This document shows, one piece after another, positions 3,033-58,193 of a stretch of DNA of 64,000 nt (positions within the stretch are counted from its first letter, which is position 1; each line of letters opens with the position of its first letter). The notes below the pieces were generated by a model, which did not search any database, had not been told where the DNA came from, and was given only the letters and a program-made list of their open reading frames with translations. Both the position numbers and the translations under genes were made by a program. The DNA comes from an archaeon (GTDB taxonomy: Archaea > SpSt-1190 > DYHY01). The DNA lies in the NCBI GenBank assembly GCA_043803745.1, contig JAZDJS010000021.1:16738-80737 (forward strand). The letters are read 5' to 3'.

Positions 3033-3165
3033 TAGCTACTATGTAGTAACTAATCTTTATAAGAGTTTTGGGTTTAAAAAGGCTGGCAAAATGACTGAAA
3101 TGTTACTTGCAGGTTTTGCCACAAACCCGCTTTTCAATCTGAACCAACCAACGCAGTTACGCGTT

Positions 3166-3365
3166 TTTTCTTTTGCGCCCGTCAACGGAGCTTTTCTTTT
3201 GCGAAAAGAAAAGATGGGTTGGGAGTGGACTGGACGGGAGTCCCCTACCGGACTTCGGCTAGCGCCTCAGGAACCCGTGACAGTGGGGTTTTCTTTTGCG
3301 CCCGTCAACGGAGCTTTTCTTTTGCGAAAAGAAAAGATGGGTTGGGAGTGGACTGGACGGGAGTC
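3166..3365. repeat. Tandem direct repeat with a 123-bp period. Copies are about 77 nt and about 74 nt are identical. Each copy ends with the last 17 nt of tRNA-Ala (tggactggacgggagtc) preceded by a conserved palindromic trailer.
   Basis: Copy 1 is at about 3166-3242 and copy 2 at 3287-3365. Copy 2 overlaps the 3-prime end of the tRNA-Ala gene. The 44-nt spacer at 3243-3286 contains gaacccgtgac, which is a T-arm fragment. Confidence 0.9.
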
Positions 3366-3420
3366 GAACCCGTGACCTCAGCGTTGCGAACGCCGCATTC
3401 TACCACTGAACTACCAGCCC
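3349..3420 (-). tRNA. tRNA-Ala (anticodon CGC)
   Basis: The reverse complement folds as GGGCTGG-TA-GTTC..GAAT-GCGGCG TTCGCAA CGCTGA-GGTC-ACGGG TTCGACT CCCGT-CCAGTCC-A. The G3:U70 pair is the alanine identity element. The anticodon loop is TTCGCAA. CCA is not encoded. Confidence 0.85.
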
Positions 3421-3606
3421 GTGCGTCTATCCAAGTTCAGTGGCGGTATATTAGCATTCCTGAGCCATCAGGCAAAGTCCGTGAGCGCACGGATACCACT
3501 GAACTACCCGCCCTTTTTTTACTGAACCCGAGCCATCGCAGGCGAGGTCCGCGCTTGATGCACGGATACCGGCCCTTGAACTTTTGGAAACTCTTCCGGG
3601 TTTTTA
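3421..3606 (-). other. Two tandem degenerate units of about 90 nt upstream of tRNA-Ala. They contain tRNA-like 5-prime fragments (GGGCGGGTAGTTCAGTGGTA on the minus strand), hairpins (TCCGTGCGCTCACGGA; CCTGATGGCTCAGG) and A/T runs. This is a possible structured ncRNA or pseudo-tRNA.
   Basis: The minus-strand read gives GGGCCGGTATCCGTGCATCAAGCGCGGACCTCGCCTGCGATGGCTCGGG.. and GGGCGGGTAGTTCAGTGGTATCCGTGCGCTCACGGACTTTGCCTGATGGCTCAGG.. The units are homologous to each other. The + strand copies end in T7 and T5 runs. Confidence 0.3.
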
Positions 3607-3668: not shown

Positions 3669-4076
3669 ATGACTAAAAAGAGGGGCTACGCACTGCGCGT
3701 CGGGGAGTATCTTCACGAGCTTTGGCCCAACGCAATCCTCTGCCGCCCTGACAAGGAAATCCCTCAGAAAAACGGAAAGAGGCCTGACTGGCTTGTTCTC
3801 GACTCGGTTGATGAGCTTGACGGACGGACAACATATCGAGTTTTTCCCGTTGAAGTCAAACAGAGACACGCGCTGGATGGAGAAGAACAAATACGCAGGG
3901 CGACTACAAGGGCTGTTGTCGATTTTTACCGCAGAAGACCTGATGTAAGACCTGCGGTGACTGAAATTCTCCGGGGAAGTTGGGAACTTCTTCCAGGGTA
4001 TGTTGCTTCATCTGAATCGCCTCCGGAAGGCGCGCCAATTCAACACCTGCTCGTTCCTTTGAGCTATCATCGTTGA
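3669..4076 (+). CDS. hjc: PD-(D/E)xK nuclease, probably Holliday junction resolvase Hjc
   Basis: 135 aa. KKRGYALRVGEYLHEL ... PDWLVLD ... VFPVEVKQR matches the Hjc motifs (KRKG..E..; PDIIA; LIEVKS). A TATA-like ATATTTAAATAA lies about 26 bp upstream. Confidence 0.55.
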   Translation: MTKKRGYALRVGEYLHELWPNAILCRPDKEIPQKNGKRPDWLVLDSVDELDGRTTYRVFPVEVKQRHALDGEEQIRRATTRAVVDFYRRRPDVRPAVTEILRGSWELLPGYVASSESPPEGAPIQHLLVPLSYHR

Positions 4077-5275
4077 GCGCTTCTCAAATCCCGTTTAGGA
4101 AACAGGAAAATCCCCAGCGCGAACAGAGGAATGACTGCGGCGAATGCGAATGCTGCAGAAGGCCCGGAATATTTCCAGAGGAGCCCCGCAATAGCCGAAG
4201 CTGGAAGATAGACAAGCCCGGTTACGAAGCTGTAGAGACCGATTGCGCTTGCCCGGGTCTCCTTTGCGGATGTGTCGGAGATGTAGGCTTTGCTCTGCGC
4301 CTCGTCAAGCGTGTAGAAGATTCCGAAAAGGAGGAACAGGATGATTATCGTCTCCCGGGAATTCGCAAGAAGGAAGCCTATTGAGATTGCGGAGTACAGG
4401 ACATATTCTCCGGCAACAAGATATTTCCGGCCTATCTTGTCGCCCAGTTTCCCGAGGGGGACTGCAAACAGGAAGAAGGAAACGTTGAAGGTTGCATAGA
4501 GGAGAACGACCTCGCTTGCGGAGAAGCCGACAAGATATGCCTTGAGGAGGAGGAAGGAGAAGCTGAAATAGGAAAGGGAGAAGACTGCCGAGGAAAGAAG
4601 GTAGCGCTTCAAATCCCCGGAGAGGGTTCCGAGAATCTGGAAGGGATTCGCGCGGATTGCTCTTTTCCTCGGCTTCCGGTCCTTCACGAAAAGGACAAGG
4701 ACAAGGACGGAAAGAATTGCGGGAACGAGAGCGACTGCGAAGAGGAACCGGAACGCTGAAGGGGTTTCCCCGAGGGACTTGAGAATCAGATATGCAACGA
4801 AAGGTCCCAAAATTGCCCCGGCCTTGTCAAGCATTTTGTGGATTCCGAACGAAGCCCCGGTCTTCCCTTCCGAGGAAATCGTTGATATTAGCGCATCTCT
4901 CGGAGCGCCGCGGATCGATTTTCCTAGGCGCTCGACAACCCGGAAAAGGGCTGCCCCGAAAACCGTCGGGAGGAAAAGGATTATTGATTTCGCAGCAGTC
5001 GAGAATCCGTAGCCGAAAACCGCGAACGGCTTTCTTTTGCCAGTTTTGTCGGAAAGGTAGCCGGAAACAAAGTCAAGGGAGGAGGCCGCGAAATCAGAAA
5101 GGCCCTCGACAAGCCCGAGGAGCGCCTGGGATGCCCCAAGGATTACAGTGAAGAAAACGGAGAAAACGGAGAAAATCATTTCCGAGCTTATGTCAGTCAG
5201 GAAGCTGACGATTCCTAGAATAATTATTTCTAGGGGAACCCCGAAAATCTGCCTTGGCTTTCTTTTCTCGCCCAT
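4067..5275 (-). CDS. MFS (major facilitator superfamily) transporter
   Basis: 402 aa with about 12 predicted TM helices and MFS-like loops (GxLSDKTGKRKP). Confidence 0.75.
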   Translation of the reverse strand: MGEKRKPRQIFGVPLEIIILGIVSFLTDISSEMIFSVFSVFFTVILGASQALLGLVEGLSDFAASSLDFVSGYLSDKTGKRKPFAVFGYGFSTAAKSIILFLPTVFGAALFRVVERLGKSIRGAPRDALISTISSEGKTGASFGIHKMLDKAGAILGPFVAYLILKSLGETPSAFRFLFAVALVPAILSVLVLVLFVKDRKPRKRAIRANPFQILGTLSGDLKRYLLSSAVFSLSYFSFSFLLLKAYLVGFSASEVVLLYATFNVSFFLFAVPLGKLGDKIGRKYLVAGEYVLYSAISIGFLLANSRETIIILFLLFGIFYTLDEAQSKAYISDTSAKETRASAIGLYSFVTGLVYLPASAIAGLLWKYSGPSAAFAFAAVIPLFALGIFLFPKRDLRSAQR

Positions 5276-5333
5276 TTAGGTCGTGGTCCTTTTTCGTTTT
5301 CCCGTGAAAGGTCCTCTGCAGAGGAGGTTTCAG

Positions 5334-5420
5334 CGCCGAGAATGGGATTTGAACCCATATATCCCCGAAGGGAAACCAGCTCTCAAGGCTGGCGCGTTGA
5401 CCGGATTTCGCTATCTCGGC
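5334..5420 (-). tRNA. tRNA-Ser (anticodon TGA), class II with a long variable arm
   Basis: The reverse complement is GCCGAGA-TAGCGAAATCCGGTCAACGCG-CCAGC CTTGAGA GCTGG-TTTCCCTTCGGGGATATA-TGGGTTCAAATCCCA-TCTCGGC-G. The TATA TTTATAAA at 5443-5450 sits about 26 nt upstream of the 5-prime end. Confidence 0.85.
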
Positions 5421-5573
5421 AGGTTCTAAGGCTTGATGGTAGTTTATAAAATGAAGTTTTTCTTACGCCCGTCAACGGATTTTCTTTTTGCCAAAAAGAA
5501 AATGGGTTGGATGTTGACCGGATTTCGCTCTTATCTCGGCGTGCGTTAAGGCAAGGAGGGAGTTTATAAAATG
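5396..5573. repeat. Direct repeat with a 117-bp period. It duplicates the first roughly 28 nt of tRNA-Ser plus its TATA promoter (unit A 5396-5453, unit B 5513-5573, about 85% identical). The palindromic trailer element lies between the units.
   Basis: gttgaccggatttcgctatctcggcaggttctaaggcttgatggtagtttataaaatg versus gttgaccggatttcgctcttatctcggcgtgcgttaaggcaaggagggagtttataaaatg. Confidence 0.85.
5443..5450 (-). promoter_or_regulatory. Archaeal TATA box (TTTATAAA) for tRNA-Ser
   Basis: Palindromic TATA centred about 26 nt upstream of the tRNA 5-prime end. Confidence 0.6.
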
Positions 5574-5595
5574 GGCGCTGATTGGAAGAGAGACG

Positions 5596-5784
5596 ATGGA
5601 TTCTCCTTCTCACCAAGCGAAACCCGCAAGGGAAAAGCGCCTCCAGGTGGACTGCATGAACTGCGGGGAAGCGGTTGACATAACTGGCAAGGCTGCGGGG
5701 GAGAGAATATTCTGCCCTGAATGCAAAGCGGAATTCGTCGTTGCCCTGATAGACGGGCATCTTGATATCGAATTCCTGACCTGA
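5596..5784 (+). CDS. Small zinc-ribbon protein (CxxC...CxxC), LysW-like architecture
   Basis: 62 aa, ...CMNCGEAVDITGKAAGERIFCPECKAEFVVALIDGHLDIEFLT. The duplicated TATA (5563-5570) is about 29 nt upstream, consistent with a leaderless promoter. Confidence 0.45.
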   Translation: MDSPSHQAKPAREKRLQVDCMNCGEAVDITGKAAGERIFCPECKAEFVVALIDGHLDIEFLT

Positions 5785-5827
5785 TTCGGCCGGAAAAACT
5801 TTTAACCTAGGAACGTGACGTTCCGGG

Positions 5828-7924
5828 ATGGCAAAGAGGAAACTCATCTTGGTGGGCTTGGTTTTGGCATATTTGGTTATTGTCGGGGGATTTTCTCCGG
5901 GGACTGGGGATTCCGCGCTCTCTTCGGGAAGCGCTCTTGTCGCATGCACAATGGATGCGAAAATCTGCCCCGATGGCAGCGCGGTTGGAAGGACCGGACC
6001 GAACTGCGAGTTTGCGCCCTGCCCTGAAGATTCAACATCATCTGGGGGAGGCCAAACTGAGATTGCGAACCCCGCTTCGGTGAAATGCATCAGGGAGGGG
6101 GGGAAACTGGCAATCAAAGAAGCTGACGGGGGACAAATCGGCATCTGCCACTTTCCCGACGGAACCTCCTGCGAAGAATGGGCATATTACCGGGGCGAGT
6201 GCGGGACGAATTCCGGAGGGGAAATTTCGCTGCCGACAACCCTAATACAGCCAATTGACTCCGCATGCGCAAGAATCGCCCTCCTAAGGCAGGAGCTTGC
6301 GAAATATAGGGAACTTGTCTCCCTAACCGAAAACGAGCTTTCCTCAAGGGGATATTCCCTTGAAAAACTCAAGCTCATTATCAGCGAAAAGGAGAAACTT
6401 GTAAGGGAGAAAATCTCCGAGTGTCCTGAAAGCTCGGAAACCGGCGGAACAAGCACATCCTCTTCCGGAGGCTCCGGGCAGGGGGTCCTCCAAAGCGGCG
6501 ACGGCTGCCTTGAAATCCAAAACAGGATACAGAAATACAAGGAAATTCTCCTTCTGAATGACGAGCTCCTTTCCGAGAAAGGGCTTGCCAGGGAGAAAAT
6601 CAAGGCTCTGCTTGATGCGGAAGCTGGGAAATATTCCGCCTGCTTGGGTGCAAATCGGGCAACTGAAACCTTGCCTGCGGTCCCGGTGCTTACGCCCTGC
6701 GGCGAGGCGAAGGGGCTTTCCGAAAACGTTCTCTATTACAAGAAGCTCCTTTCATTGACTGATGAAGAGCTTGCGGAAAAGGGCCTTGAAAGGGCGCTGG
6801 TCCAGAAGAAATTCGAGCAAGCTGACGCTACGCACAACAATGCAGTCTCCAACTGCGTTGTCACAAAAGCGGAGCCGATTTCTTCCGAGGCAGTCCCGAT
6901 AGGTCCCTGCGAACAGGTCAGACTTGTCGAGCAGAAAATCCTCTACTACAAAAAGCTCCTTGGCCTTACGGATTCGGAGCTTGCGGAGAGGGTGAAGGAA
7001 TACACGCGCGAGAACCTGAAGGCGAACCTCGAGTCTCTTGAGAAAACTTATGCCGAGTTCGTCCGCAAATGCAGGGCGGCTTCCGGGGAAACCCGGGCGC
7101 AACCTTGTGTTCCCTCCCAGGAAAAGATGCGGGAGTATGAAGGTCTTTCCGAAAAGCTCAAGGCAGCGAACGCTAACGGAGACAAGGCGCTCGCAGAGGA
7201 GATAATGCAGGAAATCCGGGCTGTGAAGGCTGAGATTGCCGCGTCGAATTCCTGCGCCCAGGAAATTTCTGCAGCGGCAATTGCAAAGCCGACTGCAGTT
7301 GAAAATTCCCAGGAAATTTCCAGCTATTACAAGAACAAGCTGGCGACGGTGATGTCGTCCGCCTCGGGAGTTGACAGCCAAATCTCCTCCCTGAAGGAAC
7401 TCAGGACCGAGATAGACAAGATGATTGAAGCGCTCCTGAAGAGGAAGGAAAGCGTTGATGCCGAAGAGCTTTCAGGTCTCGCAACTGTCGAGATTTCGGA
7501 AGACGGGATGAAGGTCAACAACAAGGTTGTCGAATCCCTTGTAAGCAACGAGATTGTCACAAGGATAAACAACCGGGAGATGAAGGTTCTGAAGGGCGCT
7601 TCCGGGGTTTCCCTTGACGACGGCTCGGAAATAAAGCCGGATGTCGGAGAGCCGGTGATTGTCGAGGATGGGAAAGTGAATATTGGCGGAAATGAGCTGA
7701 AAATCCTTCCTGGCGAGCTTGGGACCTTGATTGGCTTCGCCCCCGACTCGGTTGAGTTGGGGTCTGAGGATGGGAAGCTCGTCTATGTTGCAAGGATGAA
7801 TGAAAAAAGGAAGCTTTTCTGGATAATCCCAGTTCAGGTCGAGAAAACGGAGAAAATAGACGCTGAGAACGGTGAGTCCCTCGGGGAAAGCATGCCTTGG
7901 TGGTCAGCCCTGGCTTCAAGATAG
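5828..7924 (+). CDS. Secreted or membrane-anchored repeat protein with an N-terminal DUF333 (putative hemolysin-like) domain
   Basis: 698 aa. N-terminal hydrophobic anchor, then SVKCIREGGKLAIKEADGGQIGICHFPDGTSCEEWAYYRGEC, which is the DUF333 signature. Four internal repeats of the type KY(K/R)ELxSLTDxELxEKGL separated by Cys-containing linkers. Coiled-coil-rich C-terminal half. Confidence 0.65.
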   Translation: MAKRKLILVGLVLAYLVIVGGFSPGTGDSALSSGSALVACTMDAKICPDGSAVGRTGPNCEFAPCPEDSTSSGGGQTEIANPASVKCIREGGKLAIKEADGGQIGICHFPDGTSCEEWAYYRGECGTNSGGEISLPTTLIQPIDSACARIALLRQELAKYRELVSLTENELSSRGYSLEKLKLIISEKEKLVREKISECPESSETGGTSTSSSGGSGQGVLQSGDGCLEIQNRIQKYKEILLLNDELLSEKGLAREKIKALLDAEAGKYSACLGANRATETLPAVPVLTPCGEAKGLSENVLYYKKLLSLTDEELAEKGLERALVQKKFEQADATHNNAVSNCVVTKAEPISSEAVPIGPCEQVRLVEQKILYYKKLLGLTDSELAERVKEYTRENLKANLESLEKTYAEFVRKCRAASGETRAQPCVPSQEKMREYEGLSEKLKAANANGDKALAEEIMQEIRAVKAEIAASNSCAQEISAAAIAKPTAVENSQEISSYYKNKLATVMSSASGVDSQISSLKELRTEIDKMIEALLKRKESVDAEELSGLATVEISEDGMKVNNKVVESLVSNEIVTRINNREMKVLKGASGVSLDDGSEIKPDVGEPVIVEDGKVNIGGNELKILPGELGTLIGFAPDSVELGSEDGKLVYVARMNEKRKLFWIIPVQVEKTEKIDAENGESLGESMPWWSALASR

Positions 7925-7933
7925 AAAGGAGTT

Positions 7934-9139
7934 TCACTTGAGGCTTTCCCGGGCTGCTGAGATTGCGGCAGGGATTCCTTCCGGGTTCCTGCCCGAACCG
8001 GTGATGAGCGTAGGTTTTCCGCCGCCCCTTCCGGAAACAAGTGGGAAGAGTTTTTCCGAGAGCTTCGGAAGGTCGAGCGCGCATTCAGGAGATTTGGCAA
8101 GGACGACCGTGAAGAAATCCTGTTCAATTCCGCCGAAGATAAGGGCAACCGCGCACGCCTGAGAAACGAGCCTTTCCGCAAGCTCCGCAAGGTCCCTCCG
8201 GTCAAGAATCCCGCAGTAGTTTTTCGAATAGAAGGAAATTTCCCCGAACTTTTCCGGGACGGGGTTCTCCGATTTGGCAATCAGGGCGGATTGCCTCCGG
8301 GAAGTTTCCCTGAGATGGAGGAGTTCCTTCTTCTGATTGACCGCGGTAGGGACGAGCTTTTCCGGCTCAACCTGGAGGGCAAGGGCCAGCTCAAGCGCCC
8401 GGTTCGCAAGGGAGCCTGATTCGGAAACCGCCCGCTCGCCGGCAGCGAACTCTACTATTGTGGACTTTCCGGATTTGTTTATTGAAAGAATCTTGAAATG
8501 GCCTATTTCCGATGTGTTCTGCAAATGCGTCCCCGAGCATGCCGCGAAATCCTCCCCCTCGATTTCGACAATCCGGATGTCCTTTTCCGGAAGCCGTTCC
8601 TCCTTCAGGCGCGAATCCGGGAGGGCTGATTTTGCCTCGGCAAGCGTGGAAAAGATTCTGCTTTTGACTGGGATTGCCCTCCTGATTGCGGAGTTCGTCA
8701 GTTCTTCGGCCTCAAGGAGCTGCCTTGGCTCAAGCTCCCCGGAGAGGAAGAGCTTGCCGCGCTCGGGGGAGAAATCAACCTTGTCTATCCGGACCTCCGG
8801 GCAGACAATTTCGAGCCTTGAGAAAAAGAGGTGCTCTCCGGTGTGGAGCTGCATCAACGGGAAGCGAAAGCCCCATTCTATTTTGCAGTTACAGTCGCCT
8901 GGGGAAAGCGGGGAATCTATTTGATGGAGGATTTCCCCGTCCTTCTCAATTGTGTCAAGGACGCGGGCGGTCCCGATAGCCCCCCTGTCGCCCGGCTGGC
9001 CTCCTCCCTGCGGATGGAACGCCGTCCTGTCAAGGATTGCGAAGGTTTTTCCTGCGAGGATCTTGATTCCTGTGATTCTTGTGGAGAATTCCTTGAGGAA
9101 GGGATCGGCAAGATAGATTTTTCCAGTCTTGGTGGACAT
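7934..9139 (-). CDS. alaX: Alanyl-tRNA editing protein AlaX-L (tRNA synthetase second additional domain + DHHA1)
   Basis: 401 aa. HTGEHLF ... CSGTHL zinc-binding motifs of the AlaX/ThrRS editing fold. C-terminal GGGKP..GSG is DHHA1-like. Confidence 0.7.
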   Translation of the reverse strand: MSTKTGKIYLADPFLKEFSTRITGIKILAGKTFAILDRTAFHPQGGGQPGDRGAIGTARVLDTIEKDGEILHQIDSPLSPGDCNCKIEWGFRFPLMQLHTGEHLFFSRLEIVCPEVRIDKVDFSPERGKLFLSGELEPRQLLEAEELTNSAIRRAIPVKSRIFSTLAEAKSALPDSRLKEERLPEKDIRIVEIEGEDFAACSGTHLQNTSEIGHFKILSINKSGKSTIVEFAAGERAVSESGSLANRALELALALQVEPEKLVPTAVNQKKELLHLRETSRRQSALIAKSENPVPEKFGEISFYSKNYCGILDRRDLAELAERLVSQACAVALIFGGIEQDFFTVVLAKSPECALDLPKLSEKLFPLVSGRGGGKPTLITGSGRNPEGIPAAISAARESLK

Positions 9140-35851: not shown

Positions 35852-36029
35852 CCGTGCTCCCGACGGTTGAGTCATCTTCAGAGGACGAAATCTCGGGACG
35901 CGAGCGCGTTAGACCCGCCAGACGAAAAAGTGCGAGTGCTCCCGACGGTTGAGTCATCTTCAGAGGACGAAATCTCGGGACGCGAGCGCGTTAGACCCGC
36001 CAGACGAAAAAGTGCGAGTGCTCCCGACG
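35852..36029. repeat. Perfect tandem repeat of 2 x 82 bp plus a 13-nt third start. Each unit begins with the last 13 nt of tRNA-Glu (gtgctcccgacgg) followed by 69 nt of trailer.
   Basis: Units at 35852-35933 and 35934-36015 are identical. The third unit is the tRNA 3-prime end itself. Confidence 0.9.
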
Positions 36030-36091
36030 GGATTTGAACCCGTGTCTCGGGCTCGAGAAGCCCAGATCCTTGGCCGAGCTAGACGACAGGA
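36017..36091 (-). tRNA. tRNA-Glu (anticodon CTC)
   Basis: The reverse complement is GCTCCTG-TCGTCTAGCTCGGCCAAGGATC-TGGGC TTCTCGA GCCCG-AGAC-ACGGG TTCAAAT CCCGT-CGGGAGC-A. Confidence 0.85.
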
Positions 36092-36187: not shown

Positions 36188-36305
36188 GGGTCCATAGCTC
36201 AGCCCGGTAGAGCGGCAGTCTTATATGACTGTGTTCTATACACAAAGGATAGACTAGGTCTGAGTCAGCTGTTGGTCATGGGTTCGAATCCCATTGGGCC
36301 CACCA
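36188..36305 (+). tRNA. Intron-containing tRNA (118 nt including the encoded CCA). The tentative mature anticodon loop is CTTATAA, giving anticodon UAU (tRNA-Ile2 type). The isotype is uncertain.
   Basis: GGGTCCA-TA-GCTC AGCCCGGTA GAGC-G-GCAGT CTTATA | 41-nt intron (contains the hairpin TGTGTTCTATACACA) | A-GCTGT-TGGTC-ATGGG TTCGAAT CCCAT-TGGGCCC-A-CCA. The acceptor has a G4:U pair. A GCCCC-TTCA-GGGGC hairpin follows immediately. Confidence 0.65.
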
Positions 36306-36365
36306 GCCCCTTCAGGGGCTGAAGAAATTCCCACAGCCAGCATTCCCTTTGCGCTCTGAGGGGCT

Positions 36366-36410
36366 CATTGGGCCCACCAGAGCCCGTTTTCTTTTCCGAA
36401 AGAAAAAGCC
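36366..36410 (+). repeat. Copy of the tRNA 3-prime end (cattgggcccacca) 74 bp downstream of the intron-containing tRNA, followed by the palindromic trailer (gcccgttttcttttccgaaagaaaaag)
   Basis: 14-nt exact copy at 36366-36379. The trailer at 36381-36410 is similar to the elements at 3176-3222 and 5463-5510. Confidence 0.7.
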
Positions 36411-36426
36411 TTCGGGGAAAAAGAAA

Positions 36427-37326
36427 TCATTGGAGCGGGAAATACCTGCAAAAGGCGCAGAGCTTTCCCGAGGTCGGCTCCCTGCCGCAGGAGGGACAGA
36501 GCCGCGTCTCCTTCCCGAGGAGGGGGGCAAAAACCGGCTGGCCCTTGGAAAGATAGCTCAAGTAGAATTTCAGCCTGAATCCCGGTTCCCTCTTTTCAGC
36601 TGAAGAGAGGATTGCTTGCCACTTTTCCGTCTTCGGCTCCTTTGAAAAATTGCATTTCTTCTTCAAGTAGGGGAGTTTGAATAGTTTCGCCCAGTTTGAA
36701 AGCTCCTCCTTCGAGAAGAGGCAGAGCGGCTTTACCTTCTTCCCGAATCCAGGCAAGAGGCCGGAAACAATGGGAGTTCTCCGGGAAAGAATGTCTGGAT
36801 TCCAGGAATATACGCCGCCGAAAATCGCGGCTGTTTCGTCGTCAAGGTGATGGCCGGTTGCGAACGGGATTCCGGATTCCCGCGCCTCCCGGTTCAGGAG
36901 GGCGTTCCTTATTTCGCTGCAGGTTGCGCAGGGGTTTCGCCCCGTTCTTGAAAGTATTTCCCCGAGGGATTTATCCGGCTTTAGCAGCTTCAACTCAACG
37001 CCGCAGAAGCCGGAAATTCTCTCCGCAGCTTTTCTCGATTTGACTGAGAAAGCCCCGTTGCCCAAATCAACATGGATTGCGCGGACATTGAAACCGGCAA
37101 GCTTGAGCGAGTGGCAGAGGACGGAGCTGTCAAGGCCTCCGGAAAGCGCGACAAGGAAGGAGTTTCCCATCTGGAAATTCTTGACAGTCCAGTTTATTCT
37201 CCGAAGGAACCATTCCTTGTAATGCTCCCTGCAAAGGTCGTATTTGTGAGCCGGGAGGTGGAAGATTGCCTTTTTCTTCGCCGGGGCGTTCTTCTTGATG
37301 CAGATTGTGCAGTAAGGTGAAGACAC
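36427..37326 (-). CDS. PP-loop ATP pyrophosphatase of the TtcA/NcsA (Ctu1-like) tRNA thiolation family
   Basis: SGGLDSSV PP-loop, N-terminal CxxC and C-terminal CPSCG..CAFC zinc/Fe-S cysteines. Confidence 0.6.
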   Translation of the reverse strand: MSSPYCTICIKKNAPAKKKAIFHLPAHKYDLCREHYKEWFLRRINWTVKNFQMGNSFLVALSGGLDSSVLCHSLKLAGFNVRAIHVDLGNGAFSVKSRKAAERISGFCGVELKLLKPDKSLGEILSRTGRNPCATCSEIRNALLNREARESGIPFATGHHLDDETAAIFGGVYSWNPDILSRRTPIVSGLLPGFGKKVKPLCLFSKEELSNWAKLFKLPYLKKKCNFSKEPKTEKWQAILSSAEKREPGFRLKFYLSYLSKGQPVFAPLLGKETRLCPSCGREPTSGKLCAFCRYFPLQ

Positions 37327-57787: not shown

Positions 57788-57861
57788 TGGGCCTGCCGGG
57801 ATTCGAACCCAGGTCCGAGGCTTCGGAAGCCCCTATTCTGTCCAAGCTATACTACAGGCCC
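57788..57861 (-). tRNA. tRNA-Arg (anticodon CCG). The D-arm pairs poorly.
   Basis: The reverse complement is GGGCCTG-...-GGGGC TTCCGAA GCCTC-GGAC-CTGGG TTCGAAT CCCGG-CAGGCCC-A. The acceptor and T-arm are perfect. Confidence 0.7.
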
Positions 57862-57890
57862 TTTGCCGCAAGGGAGAATTCTCCCCGCTT

Positions 57891-57898
57891 TTTATAAA
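57891..57898. promoter_or_regulatory. Palindromic TATA box TTTATAAA, midway between the two divergent tRNA-Arg genes (about 30 bp from each 5-prime end). A GGAGAATTCTCC palindrome lies at 57873-57884.
   Basis: The spacing fits archaeal BRE/TATA-to-TSS distances in both directions. Confidence 0.55.
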
Positions 57899-57924
57899 CT
57901 CGGATTTTCCTACTTTTGCCCTCC

Positions 57925-58002
57925 GGACCCGTAGCTTAGCTTGGATAGAGCGAGTGGCTTCGAACCACTAGGTCGGGGGTCCAAATCCCTCCGGGTCCGC
58001 CA
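57925..58002 (+). tRNA. tRNA-Arg (anticodon TCG), CCA encoded
   Basis: GGACCCG-TA-GCTT AGCTTGGATA GAGC-G-AGTGG CTTCGAA CCACT-AGGTC-GGGGG TCCAAAT CCCTC-CGGGTCC-G-CCA. Confidence 0.85.
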
Positions 58003-58130
58003 AGCGTCCCCTCAGATCTCGCCCAGGTGAAAGCGCGCATAATAGGCTTGACCTCCGGGTCCGCCAAGCGTCCCCTCAGATCTCGCCCAGGTGAAAGCGC
58101 GCATAATAGGCTTGACCTCCGGGTCCGCCA
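57990..58130. repeat. Tandem repeat of 64 bp x 2.2. Each unit starts with the last 13 nt of tRNA-Arg(TCG) including CCA (tccgggtccgcca).
   Basis: Units at 57990-58053 and 58054-58117 are identical. A third start at 58118-58130 then diverges. Confidence 0.9.
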
Positions 58131-58193
58131 GAACCCATCCTCCGCGGAGGATCCGTTCGCGGGCGTCAAAGAAAGGTTGTGAAAAACCATAAA

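Follow-up and report, generated by a model that had tools for sequence, protein, structure and literature searches.

A duplicated tRNA-Ser promoter and a truncated tRNA stub between a conserved, divergently oriented tRNA-Ser and zinc-ribbon gene pair of Micrarchaeota

We analyzed a 64,000-nucleotide (nt) stretch of archaeal DNA (GenBank assembly GCA_043803745.1, contig JAZDJS010000021.1, positions 16,738 to 80,737), called the window below, in which an intact tRNA-Ser(UGA) gene on the minus strand (5333-5420) and a gene for a 62-amino-acid (aa) zinc-ribbon protein on the plus strand (5596-5784) are divergently oriented. The region between them holds a second copy of the start of the tRNA-Ser unit, including its palindromic TATA box, and an element that recurs at other tRNA genes of the window. 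The intact tRNA was called by ARAGORN and matched the Rfam family RF00005 with 63.4 bits; it is near-identical to the tRNA-Ser of two related loci, designated L002 and L004.

The zinc-ribbon open reading frame (ORF) carries a CxxC...CPxC cysteine arrangement and corresponds to the NCBI record V1820_02750, where the protein is termed hypothetical and an unclassified archaeal metagenome-assembled genome (MAG) is given as its source. A 62-aa CxxC..CxxC ORF had been reported here by a first-pass annotation made from the sequence alone; it does exist and is a genuine gene conserved in Micrarchaeota, as follows from its orthologs, its substitution pattern, its LysW-like fold and its conserved gene order. 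The zinc-ribbon orthologs come from seven independent assemblies and are 36-67% identical. Among the loci L139, L142 and L143, the ratio of non-synonymous to synonymous substitution rates (dN/dS) is 0.03-0.14, with 34-70% of synonymous sites different. The gene order that is kept consists of tRNA-Ser on the minus strand, the zinc-ribbon gene and a large DUF333-type protein on the plus strand, and AlaX on the minus strand. Orthologs were obtained by an exhaustive profile-free search, which yielded the short sequences P0002 and P0056 as well as P0004, an over-called ORF that crosses a tRNA-Ser on the opposite strand. A word-based homolog search with the zinc-ribbon protein returned only the self-match, and exact look-ups of the zinc-ribbon protein, AlaX and P0001 of the window returned no contig. 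A genome scan recovered one true relative (L004), the other five hits being unrelated bacterial matches. The nine loci retrieved by a metagenome scan with the zinc-ribbon alignment were rejected as generic zinc ribbons, and no tRNA was found in the six of them that were scanned with ARAGORN.

Structural comparisons place the protein near LysW. The Pfam family PF21344 (Zn_ribbon_LysW) matches seven of eight orthologs weakly, with scores below the Pfam cut-off, and a profile searched against PDB retrieved LysW (5k2m_E, E = 1.7e-5). An AlphaFold2 (AF2) model, made with four ortholog sequences, had a predicted local distance difference test score (pLDDT) of 78.9, and its top six Foldseek matches were all LysW, with template modeling (TM) scores of 0.58-0.81 and root-mean-square deviations of 1.7-2.4 Å. 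The protein is LysW-like in fold only. The orthologs lack an EDWGE tail, their C-termini being DIEFLT in the window and DIEFLA, DIDFVT and EVEALA elsewhere. Five proteins of the locus (3669-9139) were scanned with Pfam and comprise an MFS transporter, the zinc-ribbon protein, the DUF333 protein, AlaX and one protein without a Pfam match; LysX, LysZ, LysY, LysJ and LysK are not among them.

Reading from the tRNA toward the zinc-ribbon gene, unit A consists of the 5' part of the intact tRNA-Ser, a 22-nt spacer evident in the sequence (spacer A, 5421-5442) and the palindromic box TATA_A (TTTATAAA, 5443-5450), the live tRNA-Ser promoter box, whose center lies 26.5 nt from the first base of the tRNA. 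Tract for tract, tRNA start, spacer and TTTATAAA recur about 120 nt farther on as unit B (5513-5573). This second unit contains a dead tRNA-Ser stub of 28 nt on the minus strand (5513-5540), recognized by the repeat search and alignment and joined directly to an element, denoted E, that separates the two units; a 22-nt spacer (spacer B, 5541-5562), identical to spacer A at 12 of 22 positions; and TATA_B (5563-5570), a second palindromic TTTATAAA and a copy of the tRNA-Ser TATA box. The center of TATA_B is 26.5 nt from the first base of the stub (5540) and 29.5 nt from the zinc-ribbon ATG (5596), these two starts being 56 nt apart. The first-pass annotation had placed the box 29 nt upstream of the ATG, which holds when the distance is taken from the center, whereas the end of the box is 25 nt from the ATG.

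The same annotation had described unit B as a copy of the tRNA-Ser 5' part with its palindromic TATA, and the repeat search bears this out. Within a repeated stretch of about 61 nt, an exact 17-nt direct repeat (5396-5412 and 5513-5529) is accompanied by a second repeat of 42 nt with 76% identity (5412-5453 and 5532-5573). Global alignment of 5396-5456 with 5513-5576 scored 63, compared with -17.6 ± 7.5 for 2000 shuffles (maximum shuffle score 11), corresponding to z = 10.7. The stub is 28 nt long, but it does not copy the first 28 nt of the tRNA, as had been stated; it corresponds to tRNA-Ser positions 1-25, into which 3 nt have been inserted (CTT on the plus strand, 5530-5532). Neither ARAGORN nor Rfam calls a tRNA at the stub. 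Its D-loop variant, AAATCC, is that of the live tRNA-Ser of the window, whereas L002 and L004 have AAGCCC. The 13-nt block AGTTTATAAAATG shows no difference between units A and B, and the adjacent spacers agree at only the 12 positions mentioned, so that the pattern is consistent with constraint on TATA_B. The octamer TTTATAAA occurs five times in the window, compared with 0.5 occurrences expected.

Element E is a trailer of tRNA genes. On the tRNA strand it takes the form of AACC, a hairpin with a pyrimidine-rich 5' arm (Y/R), CCnTTnnCGGG and AAAAGAAA. It occurs in the window at 3164-3344, 5280-5332, 5454-5512, 36308-36432 and 58131-58175, and also in L002, L004, L139 and L142. Its 3' motif has six matches in the window (0.09 expected), each of them immediately downstream of the stub, of a tRNA 3' end or of a terminal copy of such an end. 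Two classes of hairpin, CTTTTCTTT/AAAGAAAAG and CCTCC/GGAGG, differ on both arms, which indicates that pairing has been maintained. The copy between units A and B (5454-5512, 59 nt, minus strand), found by a hairpin and motif scan, contains a hairpin with 18-nt arms (5473-5490 and 5492-5509) followed by CCGTTGACGGGCG and an A-rich tail; it has T-runs on both strands and a folding z of -1.74, and the trailers downstream of tRNA-Ala are 78% identical to it. Another form, E' (5280-5332, minus strand), adjoins the 3' end of tRNA-Ser and was recognized as a palindrome with a 3'-motif match at 5290-5311. It is composed of GAAACC, the hairpin TCCTCTGCAGAGGA, CCTTTCACGGG and AAAACGAAAAAGG, and resembles the trailer after the tRNA-Ser of L002. 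An Rfam search at a permissive threshold gave nothing credible for E or the stub, and a 14-mer of E searched against viral contigs produced chance matches only, with no full element. Oligo-T tracts act in archaeal transcription termination. Since E at 5454-5512 has T-runs on both strands, it should end a transcript of the stub as well as a divergent transcript from TATA_A, and it is likely to serve as a bidirectional terminator or insulator.

The position of TATA_B agrees with the general promoter geometry of this genome. Upstream of 57 long ORFs, the A+T content peaks at -35 to -21 relative to the first ATG (0.60-0.67, compared with about 0.48), and AT-only 8-mers are mostly centered 25-30 nt before that ATG. 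These distances suggest that leaderless mRNAs are the rule here and that TATA_B occupies the standard place. It is the only cluster of AT-only 8-mers upstream of the zinc-ribbon ORF, none other being present in 5453-5596, and its spacing of 29.5 nt matches the 28.5 nt found for the TATA boxes that some orthologs have of their own. The earlier proposal that this spacing fits a leaderless archaeal promoter is thus upheld, and TATA_B is well supported, by geometry and by comparison with relatives, as the putative leaderless promoter of the zinc-ribbon gene. A crude position weight matrix (PWM), built from 35 promoters of the window (training median 10.7 bits, range 2.1-18.1), ranks TATA_B in the top 0.5% of window positions in both orientations. 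Scanning for promoters and terminators of bacterial type was uninformative for this DNA.

Use of one palindromic TATA box in both directions has parallels within the window and in the literature. Four divergent pairs of protein genes (9139/9195, 29617/29674, 50630/50689 and 59532/59587) have starts 55-59 nt apart with one AT box between each. In addition, tRNA-Arg(ccg) and tRNA-Arg(tcg), with 5' ends at 57861 and 57925, are divergent and separated by 63 nt (57862-57924) that contain a single TTTTTATAAA and no other AT box. Shared bidirectional TATA boxes thus appear to be routine in this compact genome. In Thermococcales, one symmetric TTATAAA box serves both directions (PMC6640164; bioRxiv 10.1101/2020.01.31.928960): in vitro, a single symmetric TATA of Pyrococcus furiosus directs transcription from two sites separated by 49 bp (PMC6640164), and in Thermococcus kodakarensis divergent starts 52 bp apart flank a shared TTATAAA (bioRxiv 10.1101/2020.01.31.928960).

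Seven related loci were available for comparison, consisting of the ortholog contigs, Candidatus Micrarchaeum sp. DR5_63_9 from GTDB (L004) and contigs reached through the neighboring large protein. The zinc-ribbon gene is divergent from tRNA-Ser(UGA) in five Micrarchaeota loci besides the window (L002, L004, L139, L142 and L143), and in all five TTTATAAA lies 25.5-29.5 nt from the tRNA-Ser 5' end. L002 and L004, the closest by zinc-ribbon sequence (64-67% identical to the window protein), have an unduplicated tRNA-Ser and a single TTTATAAA between the genes, located 25.5-27.5 nt from the tRNA 5' end, with the ATG 38.5-45.5 nt past the center of the box. L142 and L143 have the tRNA box and, set apart from it, CTTATAAA at 28.5 nt upstream of the GTG start codon, and the three loci L139, L142 and L143 all possess a zinc-ribbon box of their own (GGCTTATAAAGAA) at this distance from the GTG, distinct from the tRNA box. 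L139, of the same clade as L142 and L143, repeats the window's architecture of stub, trailer and second TATA in about 113 extra nt that comprise a full trailer hairpin, a stub of tRNA positions 1-22, a 24-nt spacer and a second TTTATAAA; its junction of stub and trailer keeps TCTCGG, a part of the 3' acceptor strand. From an L139-like state, the arrangement of L142 and L143 would be derivable by one recombination between the repeated units, and the reverse change would require new sequence, the hairpin. In L001, the 96 nt upstream of the gene contain no significant decayed stub or E by local alignment (41 of 500 shuffles reach the score).

The first-pass annotation had suggested that a duplication created or relocated the promoter of the zinc-ribbon gene, and had proposed a comparison with related genomes lacking the duplication. 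That comparison speaks against the suggestion: L002 and L004 are unduplicated and have a single TTTATAAA between both genes, and the adjacency to tRNA-Ser is kept in them and also in L139, L142 and L143. Because the two genes are neighbors in L002 and L004 even though nothing is duplicated there, the link between the tRNA-Ser promoter and the zinc-ribbon gene exists without the duplication. The gene and the promoter are old neighbors, a trait of the lineage, and in the window each would now have its own copy of a box that may be shared in relatives.

We therefore read the region as probably the shared promoter zone of a conserved divergent pair, tRNA-Ser(UGA) on the minus strand and the zinc-ribbon gene on the plus strand, with the stub as the gutted remnant of a tandem tRNA-Ser unit. 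As E is otherwise a tRNA trailer, the succession of promoter, 25 nt of tRNA and E reads as a tRNA-Ser unit minus its body. There would then be two tRNA-Ser transcription units in tandem: the distal one, with TATA_A, spacer, complete tRNA and trailer E', would be the working gene, and the one beside the zinc-ribbon gene a dead unit made of TATA_B, the 22-nt spacer, the first 25 nt of the tRNA and E, presumably left by an internal deletion. The palindromic TATA_B would allow the TATA-binding protein (TBP) to seat the initiation complex in either orientation. In the plus direction this would give a leaderless zinc-ribbon mRNA starting at about 5592-5596, and in the minus direction a stub RNA of about 40-48 nt ending in the T-run of E, whose T-rich palindrome would also stop divergent transcription from TATA_A. 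The stub may have been kept at least partly because TATA_B is the only promoter of the zinc-ribbon gene. The duplication would thereby separate, or preserve, two transcription units that use one box in some relatives; alternatively, the single-box state may have arisen by collapse of two repeats.

Several observations weigh against this interpretation. The stub is identical to the tRNA at 25 of 25 positions beside a spacer that is about 50% diverged, and L139 likewise shows 22 of 22; such identity is not explained by simple decay, although gene conversion, att-like recombination or a recent truncation of a paralogous tRNA-Ser unit could account for it. Since L139, L142 and L143 give the gene a box to itself (CTTATAAA), the two genes need not share one. 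In L002 and L004, a duplicated ancestor could have collapsed to the single box, and the change could have run in either direction. In the nearest relative, L001, the neighboring protein is only 46% identical. The PWM, by which BRE-like purine/A-rich flanks on the two sides of the box were also judged, does not favor the plus orientation of TATA_B, which scores 4.7 bits compared with 8.0 bits on the minus strand, and these scores do not decide the direction of the box. Finally, the copy of E that separates the units is unlike the E' that follows the live tRNA. An in situ tandem duplication of the whole unit, simple and recent, was discarded, since E would then not differ from E' and would not fall between the units.

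One competing explanation retains the idea of promoter creation or replacement, in which the zinc-ribbon gene formerly had its own promoter or another neighbor and the duplication of a tRNA terminus delivered a TATA box that was co-opted. If the dedicated box (GGCTTATAAAGAA) of L139, L142 and L143 is ancestral, the lineage of the window has lost its own box and uses the stub box at the same spacing; moreover, L001 has TTATAAAC in a palindromic context of its own, and in L003 the gene stands beside tRNA-Ala instead. We nevertheless consider this history unlikely. Besides the single tRNA-Ser box that L002 and L004 share between both genes, it has to contend with an adjacency to tRNA-Ser common to six loci and with single shared boxes that are routine in the genome, so that no new promoter was needed.

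The region might also be an att-type relic, left when a foreign E, a promoter and a tRNA-Ser 5' part crossed over within the 17-nt core (AGCGAAATCCGGTCAAC). By this account, to which we likewise assign a low probability, the tRNA was rebuilt, the resident promoter and stub were displaced, and the body of the element was absent or later deleted. The full identity of the tRNA part and the drop to about 50% in the flanking spacer resemble attL/attR borders, and L139 is the same in this respect; exact terminal copies of 13-22 nt at eight of 12 tRNAs in Micrarchaeota loci point the same way. Literature precedents can be counted on this side as well: tRNA 5' fragments form direct repeats through pNOB8-type integration in Caldiarchaeum (PMC3293823), and incomplete copies of tRNA genes left by integration are widespread among archaea (PMC9897764). 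However, only 59 nt lie between the repeats, and these are a native tRNA trailer with no integrase or element DNA. The five flanking proteins (3669-9139) have no Pfam recombinase domain, circles of 64-123 bp are implausible as recombination substrates, and the similarity does not stop at the core but runs on through spacer and TATA.

That the stub unit is inert, TATA_B not being the zinc-ribbon promoter and the ORF being transcribed from elsewhere or poorly expressed, seems improbable. The modest PWM score in the plus orientation (4.7 bits) would fit it, but 5453-5596 offers no further AT box, and the T-runs of E on both strands should block read-through from either side. Strong purifying selection moreover implies that the zinc-ribbon gene must be expressed, and the spacing of TATA_B equals that of the promoters of the orthologs. 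Least of all do we expect the stub to encode a functional RNA, either a split-tRNA 5' piece or a small regulatory RNA transcribed from the promoter of the stub: the correctly spaced TATA, the 25 of 25 identity despite the diverged spacer, the similar case of L139, and the heavily disrupted tRNAs and splicing endonuclease of broad substrate range in Micrarchaeum (ARMAN-2; PMC3239211) would agree with it, but the stub stops at position 25 with a 3-nt insertion in the D-arm region and differs in length between the window (25 nt) and L139 (22 nt), its trailer is the generic E hairpin without partner-complementary sequence, tRNA-Ser positions 26-88 have no second copy elsewhere in the window, and the intact tRNA-Ser lies 93 nt away.

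Further features of the loci were noted during the comparison. In L002 (416-826) and L004 (5719-6147), the zinc-ribbon protein is extended at its N-terminus by an acidic stretch of low complexity (about 75-90 residues), which is missing from the window, from L001 and from the L139 clade; alternatively, this stretch may be read as a long purine-rich leader. L142 (355-430) and L143 (80-155) do not differ in the 25 nt that separate tRNA-Ser from its TATA, nor in the sequence just past this spacer, despite zinc-ribbon synonymous sites that are 70% different; either strong constraint on the tRNA promoter region or its exchange between lineages accounts for this. Contigs of L001, L139, L140, L141, L142 and L143, from several independent assemblies, stop in or beside the tRNA-Ser/tRNA-Ala repeat region. 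Short repeats probably break short-read assemblies, and such structures are likely to be under-sampled in MAGs. Between tRNA-Ala and tRNA-Ser of the window (3669-5275) are the MFS transporter and an unannotated 135-aa ORF with a PD-(D/E)xK-like D...VEVK motif and no Pfam match. The two tRNAs are adjacent in L142, and the zinc-ribbon gene directly follows tRNA-Ala in L003, which suggests a putative 1.9-kb insertion between tRNA-Ala and tRNA-Ser in the window.

Duplication of tRNA termini extends beyond tRNA-Ser. In the Micrarchaeota loci, the terminus of eight of 12 tRNAs is matched exactly, over 12 nt or more, by a second copy no farther than 400 nt away; in unrelated loci, this holds for none of nine tRNAs. 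Units of 64 nt at tRNA-Arg(tcg) and 82 nt at tRNA-Glu are present in 2.2 perfect copies each. On the plus strand at 57988-58130, three occurrences of the final 15 nt of tRNA-Arg(tcg), CCTCCGGGTCCGCCA with its encoded CCA, are split by two identical 49-nt fillers, after which the E trailer follows at 58131-58175. At tRNA-Glu (35854-36030, minus strand), the last 13 nt are found twice more downstream within the 82-nt repeat, whose copies are 100% identical. An intron-containing tRNA on the plus strand (36188-36380), detected by Rfam with 57 bits and missed by ARAGORN, has a 3' end, CATTGGGCCCACCAG, that recurs 60 nt downstream (36366-36380); a short hairpin and A-tail, which match the 3' motif of E, follow the first end and a full E the second. 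On the minus strand at 3166-3513, a perfect direct repeat of 77 nt, which consists of the last 17 nt of the tRNA and E, comes after tRNA-Ala(cgc). The downstream partial copy keeps GTCACGGGTTC and is interrupted by a 28-nt insertion at the T-loop position; L004 (3935-4074) is arranged in the same way, with an insertion of 30 nt. Upstream of tRNA-Ala is a fragment of its 5' part (3494-3513) without a promoter copy. The fillers between the copies of tRNA 3' ends show no significant tRNA similarity, except for an 11-mer in tRNA-Ala, and filler and core together show no unusual folding (z of -0.3 to +1.3).

It is rather doubtful that an active, lineage-specific process operates in Micrarchaeota and repeatedly copies 13-22 nt of tRNA termini over distances of only 46-120 nt. 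The copies, with unrelated filler and always linked to E, could stem from a miniature tRNA-targeting insertion or recombination system or from palindrome-driven template switching. If such a process does operate, it would have produced, among others, the tRNA-Ser stub with its spare promoter, and terminus duplication would give rise to new promoters and break up tRNA genes in reduced genomes. No description of terminal duplications together with a tRNA-specific trailer hairpin was found in the literature searched. This lineage-wide pattern is a more unusual lead than the promoter case, and the terminal duplications, with a trailer hairpin that has compensatory variants, may be relevant to research on how disrupted and split tRNA genes of archaea originated.

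For the probable shared promoter zone itself, symmetric shared TATA boxes and partial tRNA copies are each known separately and are combined here. The divergent tRNA/protein pair is found in three states, namely with one shared box, with two separate boxes, and with a duplicated promoter and a kept stub. Together these may form a small natural series in which the bidirectional promoters of compact archaeal genomes are split or merged by recombination over about 120 nt.

Four known systems invite comparison. Like the 5'-half genes of split tRNAs in Nanoarchaeum equitans and the tri-split tRNAs of Caldivirga, the stub is a 5' tRNA fragment with its own promoter at the standard distance; unlike them, it lacks a partner piece and a complementary trailer and stands beside an intact copy of its tRNA gene. 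The zinc-ribbon protein shares with the LysW/ArgW carrier proteins (PF21344; PDB 3wwl and 5k2m) a four-cysteine zinc-ribbon domain of similar size. It differs from them in ending with DIEFLT rather than in an acidic EDWGE-type tail with a final Glu, and in having no LysX, LysZ, LysY, LysJ or LysK among its scanned neighbors, the order being the same in relatives. A direct repeat of a tRNA terminus beside an intact tRNA, with identity mainly confined to the tRNA part, is also characteristic of the borders of integrated elements (SSV1, pNOB8; Caldiarchaeum tRNA-Thr-F, PMC3293823; Thermococcaceae, PMC9897764). There, however, 1.8-23 kb and an integrase lie between the copies, whereas here the repeats enclose a 59-nt trailer and no recombinase, and the repeated sequence takes in the promoter.

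The bidirectional TATA boxes of Thermococcales share with TATA_B the TTATAAA core, symmetric TBP binding and a similar separation of starts, at 49-52 bp there, with either start some 26 nt from the center of the box, and 56 nt from stub to ATG here, with TATA_B as the only box between the divergent stub and the ORF. Bidirectional use was demonstrated in Thermococcales by start-site mapping and in vitro transcription, mostly for pairs of mRNA and antisense RNA, whereas it is inferred here from sequence. In the present case, one of the partners is a tRNA or a dead stub of one, and the box exists in two paralogous copies, one for each partner.

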